Assembly: GCA_017513085.1 (NCBI GenBank)
Contig: JAFWDK010000009.1
Location: 32,001 to 96,000 of the forward strand
Direction of reading: 5' to 3'
From: Clostridiales bacterium
Lineage (GTDB): Bacteria; Bacillota; Clostridia; Saccharofermentanales; Saccharofermentanaceae
DNA length: 64,000 nt
Part shown: positions 44,459 through 49,754 of the stretch, piece by piece
Layout of the letters: the number at the start of each line of letters is the position of its first letter
Numbering within the stretch: the stretch's first letter is position 1
Position numbers and translations under genes: made by a program
The notes under the pieces: generated by a model
Seen by the model: the letters and a program-made list of their open reading frames with translations, nothing else
The model's database searches: none
Told to the model about the DNA's origin: nothing

Positions 44459-44735
44459 TTGCAGTCTTTTGATGAAATCTATCAGCAATACGCACAGACC
44501 GTGTACAAATATCTTTTGTCACTGACCTATCAGAGCGATCTTTCTGAGGAACTAATACAGGAGACGTTCTATCAGGCGCTAAGAACAATTGACCGTTACG
44601 ACGGGAAATGCAGGATCTCTACATGGCTTTGCGGGATTGCCAAGAATGTGCTTCTTACCTACAGGCGCAAGCATCCGCAACACGAGGATATCGATGACCT
44701 GGCCATCCCCGTGGAATCTTCGGAACAGGATCTGG
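44459..44735 (+). pseudogene. ECF sigma factor, region 2 only (truncated)
   Basis: RBS AAGGAGG with TTG start; FDEIYQQY..VYKYLL..SEELIQETFYQA..ISTWLCGIAKN. Similarity ends at ESSEQD; no region 4 HTH. Confidence 0.8.
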
Positions 44736-45200
44736 CTGATCACGGCAGGAGAGACAGGAAGGATCGTCTGGATGGAAGACGAGCCAATCTACGATCGTAC
44801 CTGGGATGTGTGGTCAACGAAGCACATGTACGTTGGTGATATGTCTGCGAATTCCCGTACGGCAAAAGCACTTCTGCTGTCTGAGAAGATAGGCCTTTTT
44901 ACAAATGAACTGCAAACAGAGGAAGAGCCCTATGGCTGGACGATCCTTTTCAGCGAGCCTTTGGATGCAAGTTACGAGAAGTATTATCTTTCCGAAATGA
45001 GAAAGGCGGGCTATGAAATGATTGCGCTGGTCCAAAATCTGGATCATGTGACTTTCCGATACACGATCGATGGCGAGGAATTAGAAGACACATACTTCGC
45101 AGAGGATGCATCGAAGGGATTCGGCCAGGATGTGAAGAACTGCTGGACTAGCGTGAAACTCTTCCAGAATTATGTGCACTGGCTCGATACATCAGATTAA
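44727..45200 (+). pseudogene. C-terminal fragment of a DUF4825-like anti-sigma extracellular domain
   Basis: In the +1 frame: RIVW..HMYVGDMSA..FTNELQTEEEPYGWT..IALVQNLDHVTF. No own start, zinc finger or TM helix. Confidence 0.65.
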
Positions 45201-45323: not shown

Positions 45324-46031
45324 ATGAATACGAGAAACAAATTGTTGTCGGTGTTTGTCGCCGTTATGGTATTGGGGAGCATGGCTTTGAGCGGATGCTC
45401 GATCTTTTCGAAGAAACCGTCATATTCCGTAAAAGACGCGATTGCATATATGGAAGACCGGTATGACGATAAGTTTACCTATTTTGAGGATTACGATGAT
45501 CACCAACCGACGGGAGCTTCGTACGATCTGTACCTGAAAAGCAGGAAGTACCCGGATGAGAAAGTCTATCTTCGTATCATAAGAAACGGGAACGGATTCC
45601 GCTATGTGGACAACTATATATCCGTAAAGTTTTATGACGAGACACGTGAAGCGATCGAAGACATCGCCGCTGCCGTCTATGGAAGCGAATTCAACCTGAT
45701 CTATGATCCGGGAATATCTTCTGCGATGAGTTCTACATGCGATCCGAATATGTCTTTGGAAGAATTCTGGCTGGAAAGAGAGGCAGATCTTTCTTGCTGT
45801 TTGAAGATTGATCCGGATCATGGTGAAGCAAACTCGGAAGCCGAACTCGACCGGATAGAAGAACTGATCAAAGAAAAGAAGATCAGTATCCGATTCTCGA
45901 TCTACTATACGGTAGATCAGGATTTCTATGAAGATACGAAAAACAGCACTGCGAAATGGAATGAATACAGCACGCACATGATTATCGGGATCGGCCCGGA
46001 TATGAAAACAGAAATAAAGAAGCGGAGTTGA
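45324..46031 (+). CDS. Hypothetical lipoprotein
   Basis: Lipobox LSGC; YMEDRYDDKF and YVDNY motifs. Confidence 0.75.
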   Translation: MNTRNKLLSVFVAVMVLGSMALSGCSIFSKKPSYSVKDAIAYMEDRYDDKFTYFEDYDDHQPTGASYDLYLKSRKYPDEKVYLRIIRNGNGFRYVDNYISVKFYDETREAIEDIAAAVYGSEFNLIYDPGISSAMSSTCDPNMSLEEFWLEREADLSCCLKIDPDHGEANSEAELDRIEELIKEKKISIRFSIYYTVDQDFYEDTKNSTAKWNEYSTHMIIGIGPDMKTEIKKRS

Positions 46032-46048
46032 CTCCGCTTCTTTTTTCT
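46016..46048. terminator. Bidirectional terminator
   Basis: AAAGAAGCGGAG-TTGA-CTCCGCTTCTTTTTT between convergent genes. Confidence 0.85.
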
Positions 46049-46072: not shown

Positions 46073-46951
46073 TCAGTTTTCTTCGTGCGGAAGACGTGTC
46101 GGGGAGGCAAGATTCTTGTTTTTGGCTTCCTCGAGAAGACGGGCGAGTTCTTCTTCAGTATGCTCGATAGGAAGAGAAGAGCCCTGCTTGGTCTTAACGT
46201 CCTTCGGAAATGCCTTGTGGAAGTTTTCTTTTCTGTATTCTTCCGGCGTTTGTCCGGTCTGCTTCTTGAATGCCTGGATGAAGTGGCTCTGTGTCGAGAA
46301 GGAAAGGAACTGGGAGATGCTCAGGCAGGAATAATCGGAATGCTTGAGCATGTGCTTGGCCGCATCGATCTTTTTGATTCGGATAAAATCACTGACGGAT
46401 ACGCCGGTCTCTTTTTTGAAAAGCTTGGAAAAGTAAGCATCGTTTAAGCCAAGATATTCGGACAGATCCGGTACGAGGATACGATCCTGCAAGTGGCTGT
46501 AAATGTACTCAATGGCGCGCACGACATGCTTACTGAAGATGTTATCGAGTCGAAGCGCACGCATGCGTGTGCAATAATCCTGGATGCACTGCTGCTGGAT
46601 CTCATCAAGCTGGTTGGTGTTGGTGGCAGCATCACACTTTTGGATGTAGATATCACTTAAAGAATATGAGGTTTCCACATCCATACCATAGTTGATGCAG
46701 TAACGTGAGATCATGGCAATGGATATGATCAAGTGATACCGCACGTTACGCAATCTGTCAGGAGAGAGTGTGCCGACACCGCGAAGTTCGGAGATATGGT
46801 ACTCGCGAACCTGTCTCATAACTTCTTCCACCTCGCCGGTAGCTACAAGATCGTAAAAGTCAAATTCGTGTTCATAGGAGGAGCGTACCATCAGGCGCTC
46901 ACGTTGCATAAAAAGCAGCCGCTGCAGTTCTTTGTTTACATCATTATCCAT
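46073..46951 (-). CDS. AraC-family transcriptional regulator
   Basis: N-domain LSPDRLRNVRYH..ISRYC..SYSLSDIYI; double HTH YFSKLFKKETG...FSTQSHFIQAFKKQTGQTP; start MDNDV after GAGGG. Confidence 0.92.
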   Translation of the reverse strand: MDNDVNKELQRLLFMQRERLMVRSSYEHEFDFYDLVATGEVEEVMRQVREYHISELRGVGTLSPDRLRNVRYHLIISIAMISRYCINYGMDVETSYSLSDIYIQKCDAATNTNQLDEIQQQCIQDYCTRMRALRLDNIFSKHVVRAIEYIYSHLQDRILVPDLSEYLGLNDAYFSKLFKKETGVSVSDFIRIKKIDAAKHMLKHSDYSCLSISQFLSFSTQSHFIQAFKKQTGQTPEEYRKENFHKAFPKDVKTKQGSSLPIEHTEEELARLLEEAKNKNLASPTRLPHEEN

Positions 46952-47077
46952 GTTCAGACCCTCACTTTGACATAGATTCATCCCCGTAGTACGTTTTGAA
47001 ACAAACTTACGTCATTATTATGACATAAAGTGCAAAAATTTGGTATCGTTATTTCTGAAATAGTATAGAATATACTC

Positions 47078-47262
47078 AAGTGGGGGATGTGTGAATAGAC
47101 AACCCCAATGCCTCCGTTAGTGAAAGTTTGCCATCTTTCAGACGCACACTACCCTAACCCCCACGCTGACAACATCTTGCACTTCCACATGACACACAGA
47201 TTTAGTTGCAAGAACCTACTCGATGGAAACCCCGCTATCCTGATGGTGGGGTCCATTTTTTG
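47078..47262 (+). ncRNA. Candidate trans-acting small RNA (~185 nt)
   Basis: -10 TAGAAT at 47066-47071; nested stems; terminator with plus-strand G-U pairs and a U-run at 47223-47262; no credible ORF or RBS. Confidence 0.6.
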
Positions 47263-47357
47263 TCCGGAGCTTCTCAAATATTGTTTTGTTAAACAAAATT
47301 ATAAACTTGAATTAAGCAATTGATTAATAGCAGACAATAATTTCGACATGAAATCGA

Positions 47358-49754
47358 TTATTTGATACCAAATGCCATTCCGATCAGTTGTACGGCATAT
47401 GCAGCAACCCAAGCGATCACACACTGGAAGACGACCATAATAGTTGCCCATTTAGCACCCAGCTCACGCTTTACTGAGGCGACTGCTGCGACACATGGCG
47501 TGTAGAGCAGGCAGAATACCAGAAGAGAGAACGCTGACAAGGGTGACATAGAGGCCAGAACGGCTTCTGTATTTCCAATCAGGACTGTCAGAGTGGACAC
47601 GACGCTCTCTTTGGCAAGGAAACCGGAGATCAGCGCAGTCGAGAATCTCCAATCGCCAAAACCGAGAGGAGAGAAGACAGGTGCGACAAAGCCTGCTATT
47701 ACAGCCAGAATGCTGGCGGCAGAATCTTCAGTCAGAGACAGGCTGGTATCGAAGGATTGCAGGAACCAGATCACGATCGAGGCTATAAAGATGATCGTAA
47801 ATGCACGCTGCAGGAAATCTTTGGCTTTTTCCCAGAGAAGCTGGGTAACATTTTTAAGTCCCGGCATACGGTAATTCGGAAGCTCCATGACAAAAGGAAC
47901 CGCTTTGCCCCGGAATAGAGTGCTTTTGAAAAGGAAGGCAACGAGAATGCCCACAAAGATACCGATGAAATAGAGCGCTACCATGATCAGGCCGCTGTAC
48001 TTTGGGAAGAATGTCGAGCAGAAAAAGCCGTAGATCGGAAGTTTGGCAGAACAGCTCATGAACGGTGTGAGAAGGATCGTCATCTTACGGTCGCGCTCGG
48101 ATGGTAATGTGCGGCTGGCCATAACGCCCGGAACCGTGCAGCCGAAACCTATCAGCATCGGAACGATGCTTCGTCCGGAAAGGCCGATCTTACGAAGAAA
48201 TTTGTCCATGACAAAAGCAACTCTGGCCATATAGCCTGTATCTTCCAGAAGTGAGAGAAAGAAGAACAATGTCACGATGACAGGGAGAAAACTCAGCACG
48301 CTGCCGACACCCGTAAAGATACCGTCGACGACAAGCGAGTGGATGACTTCGTTGACATTCCAGGAAGTAAGCGCACGCGCAGTGACCGAGGTAAGCGAAG
48401 AAATGCCGGATTCCAGAAGTCCTTGGAAAAAAGCGCCGATGACGTTAAACGTCAGAAAGAATATGGAGGCCATGATCAGGATAAAGGCCGGGATTGCTGT
48501 GAATTTTCCGGTCAGTATGCGGTCGATCTTGCGGCTTCTGTGATGCTCTTTGCTTTCTTTCGGCTTGATGACGGTGCGGTCCACGAGCTTTTGGATGAAC
48601 GTGAAACGCATGTCGGCGATGGCGGCGCTCCGGTCCATCCCGGACTCGTCTTCCATCTGTGTGATGATGTGCTCCAAGGTTTCTTTTTCGTTTTGATCCA
48701 ACTCAAGTTTTTCAAGAATGCGCGGATCACCTTCGACAAGTTTGGTGGCGGCAAAGCGCACCGGAATACCTGCTGATTTTGCATGGTCATCGATCAGGAT
48801 CATGATACTGTGAAGACATCTGTGAATAGCGCCGCCTTTGTCGTTTTCGTCGCAGAAATCCAGACGTCCCGGACGTTCCTGATATTTCGCGATATGCAGA
48901 GCATGCGCGACAAGCTCTTCGGTACCTTCGTTCTTAGCTGCTGAGATCGGAACGACAGGAATTCCCAGTTCGTACTCCATCTGATTTACGAGGATCGAAC
49001 CGCCGTTTCCGCGGACTTCGTCCATCATGTTGAGTGCCACGACCATCGGTACATCCAGCTCCATAAGCTGCATGGTGAGGTAAAGATTACGCTCGATGTT
49101 GGTGGCATCCACGATGTTGATGATGCCGCAAGGCTTCTCGTCAAGAATAAACTGACGGGATACGATCTCTTCCGCTGTATACGGAGACATGGAATAAATG
49201 CCGGGAAGATCAGTGATCTCCGTGTTCGGATTGCCTTTGATAACGCCGCTCTTGCGGTCGACCGTAACGCCGGGAAAATTACCGACGTGCTGGTTGGAGC
49301 CGGTAAGCTGGTTAAAAAGTGTTGTTTTACCGGAGTTCTGATTTCCGGCAAGAGCGAAGGTCAGCTTGGTGCCTTCGGGAAGGGGATTCTCATCGGCTTT
49401 GACATGGTAACGTCCGCCTTCGCCGAGACCAGGATGTGCGATGATGATACGGCGGGCTTTCTTTTCTTTCTTTTCTGCCTTCGGGTCAGCAGGTTGAGAA
49501 GACGAATCGGATTTTTGGGAAACGGTTTCTTCGGCCTTTTCCACATCGATCAGTCTGGCATCTTCAAGACGAAGAGTCAATTCGTATCCATGAATACGAA
49601 GTTCCATCGGATCGCCGAGTGGTGCGAGCTGCACCAGTGTTATGGAGGCACCGGGTATAACGCCCATGTCCAAAAAGTGTTGTCTGAGTGCGCCTTCACC
49701 GCCTACATGAAGGATACGGGCGCTTTCGCCTATCTTTAAATCTGCTAATGTCAT
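47358..49754 (-). CDS. feoB: Fused FeoA-FeoB ferrous iron transporter
   Basis: FeoA domain (LDMGVIPG..APLGDP); GNQNSGKT, VGNFPGVTV, DLPGIYS, GFGCTVP, MSCSAKL and LYTPC. Confidence 0.95.
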   Translation of the reverse strand: MTLADLKIGESARILHVGGEGALRQHFLDMGVIPGASITLVQLAPLGDPMELRIHGYELTLRLEDARLIDVEKAEETVSQKSDSSSQPADPKAEKKEKKARRIIIAHPGLGEGGRYHVKADENPLPEGTKLTFALAGNQNSGKTTLFNQLTGSNQHVGNFPGVTVDRKSGVIKGNPNTEITDLPGIYSMSPYTAEEIVSRQFILDEKPCGIINIVDATNIERNLYLTMQLMELDVPMVVALNMMDEVRGNGGSILVNQMEYELGIPVVPISAAKNEGTEELVAHALHIAKYQERPGRLDFCDENDKGGAIHRCLHSIMILIDDHAKSAGIPVRFAATKLVEGDPRILEKLELDQNEKETLEHIITQMEDESGMDRSAAIADMRFTFIQKLVDRTVIKPKESKEHHRSRKIDRILTGKFTAIPAFILIMASIFFLTFNVIGAFFQGLLESGISSLTSVTARALTSWNVNEVIHSLVVDGIFTGVGSVLSFLPVIVTLFFFLSLLEDTGYMARVAFVMDKFLRKIGLSGRSIVPMLIGFGCTVPGVMASRTLPSERDRKMTILLTPFMSCSAKLPIYGFFCSTFFPKYSGLIMVALYFIGIFVGILVAFLFKSTLFRGKAVPFVMELPNYRMPGLKNVTQLLWEKAKDFLQRAFTIIFIASIVIWFLQSFDTSLSLTEDSAASILAVIAGFVAPVFSPLGFGDWRFSTALISGFLAKESVVSTLTVLIGNTEAVLASMSPLSAFSLLVFCLLYTPCVAAVASVKRELGAKWATIMVVFQCVIAWVAAYAVQLIGMAFGIK

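Follow-up and report, generated by a model that had tools for sequence, protein, structure and literature searches.

We analysed a 64-kb stretch of a Clostridiales genome (contig JAFWDK010000009.1, positions 32,001 to 96,000; hereafter the window, whose own numbering is used throughout), in which a gap at 46952–47357 separates the gene for a 292-residue AraC/XylS-family regulator (46073–46951, identified from Pfam, NCBIfam, an AlphaFold model and Foldseek) from a feoA-feoB fusion gene (47358–49754, with Pfam domains FeoA, FeoB_N, Gate and FeoB_C), both encoded on the minus strand. An earlier note on this DNA had pointed out that the regulator gene has no divergent protein-coding partner and that feoB is directed toward the gap, and this is indeed the gene geometry found. 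On the plus strand, the gap carries a small RNA (sRNA) gene of ~185 nt (47079–47262), delineated by a covariance model, covariation and contigs from an RNA library, and preceded by a conserved promoter/operator block (46997–47049).

The motifs that the earlier note had listed for this transcript, from its −10 hexamer to its terminator, were all located where they had been placed. The −10 hexamer TAGAAT of the RNA promoter (47066–47071), read from the sequence, is kept across loci, and no TTGACA-like −35 hexamer was found 17–18 nt upstream of it; transcription is predicted to start near 47078–47080. The core of the RNA is enclosed by a closing stem (47080–47164) composed of P1 (47080–47086 with 47158–47164) and P1b (47089–47093 with 47145–47149), in which GTGGGGG..GTGTG (47080–47093) faces CACAC..CCCCCAC (47145–47164). 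Inside this stem lie a C-rich segment with AACCCCAAUGCCUC (47094–47114), unpaired in both the minimum-energy and the consensus folds, a CCUCC motif at 47111–47115, and an inner hairpin (47115–47144) made of the helices CGUU/GACG and UGAAAG/CUUUCA with the loop UUUGCCAU, which reads TGAAAG-TTTGCCAT-CTTTCA at the DNA level (47121–47140). Stem 2, UCUUGCA/UGCAAGA with a variable loop (47175–47181 with 47207–47213), follows, and the unit closes with an intrinsic terminator (47229–47261) consisting of a 10-bp stem (47229–47252) with two wobble pairs and then T6. The terminator scan reported this hairpin on the plus strand only, and the fold z-score against shuffles was −2.48 for the plus strand versus +1.17 for the minus strand. 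The two wobble pairs, which had been said to form on the plus strand alone, are present in the plus-strand fold, whereas the minus-strand fold loses the terminator helix because the two G-U pairs turn into mismatches.

When the gap was compared by blastn with 60 related genomes, all 23 same-genus genomes matched at 79–92% DNA identity over ~46997–47218, a conservation equal to that of the flanking genes, and 3 further genomes matched just 20–39 bases of the AT-rich 3′ flank. Alignment of the 24 gaps of the genus showed that the segment from the regulator start codon to ~46997 is unalignable and varies in length; from ~46997 onward, hardly any variation is seen in a ~50-nt block, the −10 hexamer and the RNA core. 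For the RNA itself, 23 sequences were aligned, the one cut by a contig end being left out. RNAalifold returned five helices with 36 pairs in total, of which 12 show compensatory changes; 98.4% of 789 cells were paired and 55 cells carried double changes, pairing values that none of 500 shuffles reached, and slid controls paired at 39–53%. The covarying helices are the outer stem, stem 2 and the terminator. Compensatory changes affect 3 of the 4 modelled pairs of P1 (G-C to A-U or C-G), double changes occur in two of the seven pairs of stem 2 (with U-G at one pair in 6 sequences), and six of the ten pairs of the terminator stem covary. The pairs of P1b are invariant, as are 9 of the 10 pairs of the inner hairpin, the remaining one switching from A-U to U-A. 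The two inner helices never vary and are therefore uninformative either way on pairing. Also invariant in the 23 sequences are the C-rich positions 33–48 of the first sequence (CCCCAATGCCTCCGTT).

Counting canonical pairs on either strand yielded 776 of the 789 cells on the plus strand versus 740 on the minus strand, with 43 G-U cells, and one U-G pair of the inner hairpin is invariant in all 22 distinct rows. These G-U pairs and the T-run thus assign the RNA to the plus strand. The covarying structure that the earlier note had proposed to look for beside the regulator orthologues is present, and together with the strand counts it bears out a discrete, non-coding RNA gene on the plus strand. 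The unit has its own promoter and its own terminator, with no gene of the same strand downstream, as is characteristic of an independent sRNA. We are highly confident that 47079–47262 is a real structured RNA gene.

That the gap holds no RNA gene at all, its signals stemming instead from a feoB terminator, from the leader of the mRNA for the regulator or from a gene for a small protein, is in our judgement highly improbable. An ATG-initiated open reading frame (ORF) of 71 codons does exist at 47108–47323, and a hairpin does lie downstream of feoB. As a small protein gene, however, this ORF was rejected: its length ranges from 21 to >53 codons across 23 species, the frame is lost after ~15 codons, the ATG is not preceded by a Shine-Dalgarno sequence, the product has no Pfam match, and synonymous variation is absent from the conserved part. 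The terminator belongs to the plus strand alone, the unit persists without feoB in a second genus described below, and it is situated upstream of the regulator promoter region on the opposite strand. The downstream neighbour points toward the RNA gene at each of the 23 loci that extend so far, and likewise in the second genus, which excludes a leader or riboswitch.

The RNA matches no Rfam family, as a search that the earlier note had recommended now documents. None of the Rfam 15 covariance models overlapped 46951–47357 at E ≤ 10, and none reached its gathering score anywhere in the window; in particular, RF01820 (RsaE/RoxS; gathering score 79 bits) had no match at the site at E ≤ 10 and none genome-wide at E ≤ 1. 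Weak matches to STnc40, mir-5391 and isrK all fell on a separate terminator (46016–46043), off the RNA gene, and were discarded. Full-text literature searches, which left supplementary files aside, found no description of this RNA. It represents a new sRNA family of a known kind, a candidate riboregulator of the C-rich firmicute type that would have an activator of its own encoded alongside.

The alignment served to build a covariance model, which detected exactly one copy per genome in 24 of 24 genomes of the genus (166.7–230.4 bits). Applied to 118 further genomes of the family, from seven other genera, it gave no credible match; a 29-bit match in a third genus covers the terminator only, with 75 core positions replaced by 7 nt, and was rejected as a homologue. 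A 21-base core pattern was found in 23 contigs among the genomes of 185,579 species (one genome per species), all of them titled as metagenome-assembled genomes from ruminant forestomach or horse faeces. One member of the genus is Candidatus Scatonaster coprocaballi, placed by the NCBI taxonomy in the Saccharofermentanaceae, Clostridia. As judged from these sequence searches, the RNA is confined to a single uncultured clostridial genus of the gut and rumen, with a shortened relative in one neighbouring genus.

Two RNA libraries cover part of the window, a sheep-gut metatranscriptome (X2) and a poly(A) run (X1). Three X2 contigs span 47092–47194 with word depths of 119, 524 and 218, values that derive from contigs assembled and summed over related species, from which strand, ends and a reliable level cannot be read, and X1 covers 47129–47279 at a depth of ~2. 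The contig depths are consistent with an abundant RNA. The ends of the X2 contigs coincide with places where the species differ; no X2 contig lies on the regulator gene or the promoter block, which is uninformative because contigs break at such differences. Two X2 contigs carry adapter-like loose ends directly before ~47090 and ~48021, and the two end sequences differ. Compared with Illumina adapter sequences, they would be compatible with transcription of the RNA and feoB from opposite strands, a hint at most with one contig each.

A plus-strand transcript at this position might also act mainly in cis, as an antisense or collision partner of minus-strand read-through from feoB (from the cyclophilin gene in the other genus) into the regulator gene. 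In the interval from the stop codon of feoB to the RNA gene, the terminator scan found nothing on the minus strand, and the terminator hairpin is weakened and lacks a proper U-tract on the minus strand, so that read-through across the RNA gene is plausible. Nonetheless, we consider a mainly cis-acting transcript very unlikely. Covarying helices and an invariant single-stranded stretch denote selection on the RNA fold, which a pure antisense transcript would not need, and the convergent cyclophilin gene of the second genus is followed, on its own strand, by a hairpin and T-run, so that conservation does not extend to the read-through.

The block upstream of the RNA promoter, nearly invariant in the 24 intergenic regions, contains box 1, CATTATTATGACA (47013–47025), and box 2, ATTTGGTAT (47038–47046), spaced 12 nt apart. 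Downstream of them, all 24 loci retain the −10 hexamer TA[G/A]AAT at a constant distance, although the surrounding spacer varies. Searched with one mismatch permitted, the box pattern occurs exactly once per genome in the 24 genomes of the genus and in the one genome of the second genus, and in none of 17 genomes from five further genera. Its single occurrence among 100 genomes of a third genus, with one mismatch, is chance-like (the reversed control gives three matches). In metagenomes the pattern retrieved 14 stretches (five of the genus type, one identical to the second-genus locus and eight unrelated), adding no new lineage. With a weight matrix made from the block, the locus reaches 119.8 versus −59.8 for the next best site of this genome. 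Fur or another global regulator was rejected as the binding protein, the block having no second good site in the genome; its likeness to the Fur-box consensus was weak. Box 2 occupies the −35 place of the TAGAAT promoter, an arrangement that would fit an activator-dependent promoter.

We searched the regulator protein in ten genomes of ten other genera and recovered nearly full-length homologues in six. The closest one (53% identity) belongs to a genome of the second genus, where the gene order is prolyl-tRNA synthetase, regulator and cyclophilin, with feoB absent. There, the regulator gene is divergent from a ~120-nt RNA unit with its own terminator, and the unit has CATTATTATGACA-N12-ATTTGGTAT boxes as in the first genus plus a −10-like hexamer. 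The RNA begins with a hairpin exposing an ACCCC loop, followed by CCUCC, and has at the place matching stem 2 a different helix whose loop likewise ends in CACACUUU. Against the model, with filters off, this RNA scores 18.9 bits (E = 0.0012), and its fold z-score is −5.94; the entire inner hairpin is missing and 63 model positions are absent. As the syntenic locus keeps the RNA without feoB, the RNA is tied to the regulator and not to feoB. Within the genus, a regulator orthologue is present in 24 of 24 loci at 88–100% protein identity (88–99% in the 23 other loci), and FeoB in 23, the remaining locus stopping at a contig edge. The conservation beside AraC-type orthologues that the earlier proposal entailed thus extends to a second genus with no feoB at the locus and with the promoter boxes kept, and feoA-feoB is probably context outside the module.

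The regulator belongs to the AraC/XylS family by its C-terminal DNA-binding domain (Pfam HTH_18, 5.4e-19; HTH_AraC, 1e-13), which has the double helix-turn-helix of that family and which Foldseek aligned with the DNA-binding domains of YesN, AraT, MarA, SoxS and AraC at target-normalised TM-scores up to 0.92. Its 136 N-terminal residues are all-helical in the AlphaFold model; this domain matched no Pfam domain and no PDB fold in Foldseek, and the N-terminal 140 residues matched unnamed clusters only in the ESM Atlas. The best NCBIfam match, TIGR04094, is under its cut-off, and the NCBIfam AraC model gave 55.6 bits versus a cut-off of 208. Identity with AraC proper was rejected, since that protein has a cupin-type sugar-binding and dimerisation domain at the N-terminus instead of an all-helical one. 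The label AraC used earlier therefore stands for the family, by virtue of the helix-turn-helix domain, and falls for AraC itself. The protein is ~290 residues long in the genus versus ~251 in the other-genus homologues; the extra C-terminal tail (46073–46200, ~40 residues) is modelled with low confidence except for one helix.

More distant homologues (38–45% identity, near full length) are each encoded head-to-head with a single gene, which is a glycoside hydrolase (GH) family GH5 cellulase at 4 loci and a GH16 glucanase at 3, one of these in this genome; at 1 locus it encodes a hexapeptide transferase. The four GH5-linked intergenic regions contain an ATG[T/A]CA[T/C]AAA-type box and, after it, a G[A/G]TATC box. 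This arrangement indicates that the regulator family habitually controls one divergent neighbour, which in two genera is an RNA gene. Where paralogous AraC-type genes face glycanase genes, the gaps (locus L097 for GH16; L094, L095, L102 and L103 for GH5) also hold direct repeats ~21 bp apart, such as ACGAAAACG, which occurs twice in L097; by eye, they resemble typical AraC-family half-sites.

Taken as a whole, the explanation that we put forward, to which we give an even chance, is that of an independent gene for a trans-acting, structured sRNA of ~185 nt under the control of the divergently encoded regulator. The RNA would be transcribed from a promoter with a good −10 hexamer (TAGAAT) and no −35, and the two-box block, single in the genome, would serve it from its position just upstream. 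The AraC/XylS-family protein most likely binds this block and activates the RNA promoter, possibly controlling its own promoter as well, and the RNA would stop at its own intrinsic terminator. The unpaired AACCCCAAUGCCUC would most likely pair with G-rich ribosome-binding regions and block their translation, by analogy with other C-rich RNAs of Firmicutes. As to its parts, we consider control of the RNA by the neighbouring regulator, as deduced from the promoter sequences, to be finely balanced, and we lean slightly toward action by base-pairing through the C-rich stretch, a mode suggested by its sequence. What the analysis establishes is the RNA gene with its structure, strand and distribution and its linkage to the regulator, whereas its activation by that protein, its mode of pairing and any target are inferred.

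A number of observations speak against this explanation, the first group bearing on transcription and its control. The expression evidence consists of assembled contigs. The linkage to the regulator draws on one genus and one outgroup genome, a phylogenetically thin base, and the second-genus RNA is a single sequence outside the covariation test. Moreover, box 1 read on the minus strand is TGTCATAAT, an extended −10 for the regulator gene, and a scan picks up ATGACA-N18-TATCGT, with a TG before it, as a plus-strand promoter, from which the RNA would start ~22 nt earlier. Parts of the boxes can also be taken for core promoter elements, so their conservation could reflect a core promoter rather than an operator.

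These same elements, the extended −10 and the sigma-70-type plus-strand promoter, would be expected if the trans-acting sRNA were transcribed under another regulator or none, the boxes being two core promoters and the AraC-type gene remaining adjacent by inherited order; gene order is generally kept within the genus. We regard this possibility as doubtful, albeit a serious one. Among 142 genomes of the family, those of the two genera alone combine the RNA, the boxes and the orthologous regulator, while feoB is not kept. TA[G/A]AAT is retained 19 nt downstream of box 2 within a variable spacer, as expected for a −35 occupied by an activator. The single copy of the block in the genome is contrary to a global regulator such as Fur, and the homologous regulators all stand head-to-head with a single gene.

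The second group concerns the proposed pairing with mRNAs. The earlier note had suggested that CCUCC occludes ribosome-binding sites, a claim that the target prediction did not sustain, as it revealed neither an outlier nor a conserved site. Duplex energies of a 31-nt seed were calculated for 2920 start regions obtained by crude gene calling, and the best duplex (−26.6 kcal/mol) fell within the range of five shuffled seeds (−26.1 to −30.9 kcal/mol, 1500 regions each). Start regions with 10–11 contiguous complementary bases belong to unrelated genes, those for flavodoxin, KDPG aldolase, FtsZ, ABC-2, MFS, an LRR surface protein and HU. A genus-wide check of candidate sites covered flavodoxin and KDPG aldolase, and both were rejected: the flavodoxin gene is present in 7 of 24 genus genomes and keeps CGGAGG alone, and the KDPG aldolase site, located within the coding frame, is lost in the 22 orthologues of that gene. 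The neighbouring genes rank 807–2469 of 2920 in the scan, and ACG precedes GGAGG in 5 of 871 start regions, which amounts to no enrichment. The paralogue-linked GH16 gene was absent from the called start regions. In addition, the second-genus fold buries CCUCC in a stem and leaves ACCCC alone exposed. Finally, ~60 contiguous bases of the RNA, including the helices that never vary, are invariant in species whose proteins differ by 10–20%; such a constraint exceeds the needs of a seed and hints, from sequence conservation, at a protein or ligand partner.

An RNA that works as a folded particle, binding or sequestering a protein or binding a small ligand rather than pairing with ribosome-binding sites, would account for this constraint. 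The core from P1b to its closing strand (~47089–47149) is invariant in the 23 sequences, including the loop UUUGCCAU and the never-varying helices, and the search for mRNA targets gave nothing significant or conserved. Yet, of the unpaired stretches that do not vary, the longest is rich in C and contains CCUCC, which makes it a classic type of firmicute seed as described in PMC4409812. The second-genus relative lacks the inner hairpin and keeps the C-rich loop and CCUCC, so that the part common to both RNAs is the C-rich sequence and not the fold. Nor does any Rfam protein-binding or riboswitch family match the RNA. On balance, a folded particle appears unlikely to us. The unpaired stretch carries CCCC and CCUC; its pairing with an mRNA, in the manner of the several exposed C-rich regions of RsaE/RoxS, is a candidate function only.

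The proposed module has relatives of several kinds. SgrR-SgrS, OxyR-OxyS and GcvA-GcvB are divergent regulator-sRNA pairs with a shared control region, in which the sRNA is the local output. The present locus resembles them in the divergent transcription of regulator and sRNA from a shared control region, and differs in that its regulator is of the AraC/XylS family, whereas theirs are of the SgrR and LysR families in enterobacterial, Hfq-dependent systems. SgrS also encodes the peptide SgrT, while the ORF in this RNA is unconserved. Among AraC/XylS-family activators, ToxT drives the genes of the sRNAs TarA and TarB, TarA targeting the mRNA of the sugar transporter ptsG (PMC10335731), HilD drives the sRNA gene InvR (PMC11925239), and the title of PDB entry 7w5w names a SoxS activation complex on the micF promoter. 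The regulator studied here would likewise drive an sRNA gene. However, TarA/TarB, InvR and MicF are Hfq-dependent proteobacterial sRNAs embedded in large virulence or stress regulons, in contrast to what seems to be a single site in a head-to-head arrangement.

With RsaE/RoxS (RF01820, Bacillales), the C-rich regions of which pair with Shine-Dalgarno sequences, the RNA shares its occurrence in Firmicutes, an exposed C-rich CCCC/CCUCC, its own promoter and intrinsic terminator, and a conserved sequence upstream of the promoter that suggests a transcription factor (for RsaE/RoxS, as described in PMC4409812). It departs from RsaE/RoxS in having a single long C-rich bulge, unpaired and enclosed by a closing stem, instead of several C-rich loops, in its length (~185 nt versus a 112-position model), in its occurrence in a different class, the Clostridia, and in its AraC/XylS-type neighbouring regulator, RsaE/RoxS being ResDE/SrrAB-dependent. 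Since C-rich sRNAs and AraC-like activators of sRNAs are both known, no established view is overturned.

The closest parallel within the regulator family is offered by the divergent pairs of AraC-type regulators and glycoside hydrolase genes, with 38–45% identical regulators, the same head-to-head arrangement and related boxes in the GH5-linked gaps; they differ in their targets, GH5 cellulase and GH16 glucanase genes, the place of which is taken by an RNA gene here and in the second genus. It is conceivable, but we hold it rather improbable, that a carbohydrate-sensing regulator of this glycanase-switching family (GH5/GH16) had its protein target replaced by an sRNA gene, giving rise to a sensor-to-sRNA relay for polysaccharide use. 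If so, the sole direct output of the regulator would be a riboregulator through which the signal reaches many mRNAs at the post-transcriptional level, in rumen Clostridia that are abundant and uncultured. A role in sugar preference, as earlier surmised, would find its sole support in the paralogous regulators beside GH5/GH16 genes. Among the uncultured Clostridia that dominate the breakdown of fibre in rumen and hindgut, very few regulatory RNAs are known. A strongly conserved and, in the sheep-gut library, probably abundant RNA with an obvious candidate regulator and a compact control region offers a good entry point to post-transcriptional control in these organisms, and an example of a regulator family that pairs with either enzyme genes or an RNA gene.

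Some further features of the surroundings were recorded. The iron transporter is a single 798-residue FeoA-FeoB fusion with the FeoA domain at its N-terminus, located between the RNA gene and the cyclophilin gene in the genus. In one species of the genus (locus L002), the gap measures ~1390 nt versus roughly 350–590 nt in the 22 other complete gaps, which corresponds to ~1 kb of additional DNA downstream of the RNA gene, between its terminator and feoB; locus L007 bears an insertion of ~200 nt between the regulator start and the promoter block. On the other side of the regulator gene, the interval up to the prolyl-tRNA synthetase gene contains a DUF4825 gene (44589–45200) and an ORF of 235 codons (45324–46031, plus strand) that has no Pfam or NCBIfam match. 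This convergent ORF is separated from the 3′ end of the regulator gene by a perfect 12-bp hairpin (46016–46043) that is flanked by A-runs and T-runs and scans as a terminator on both strands.

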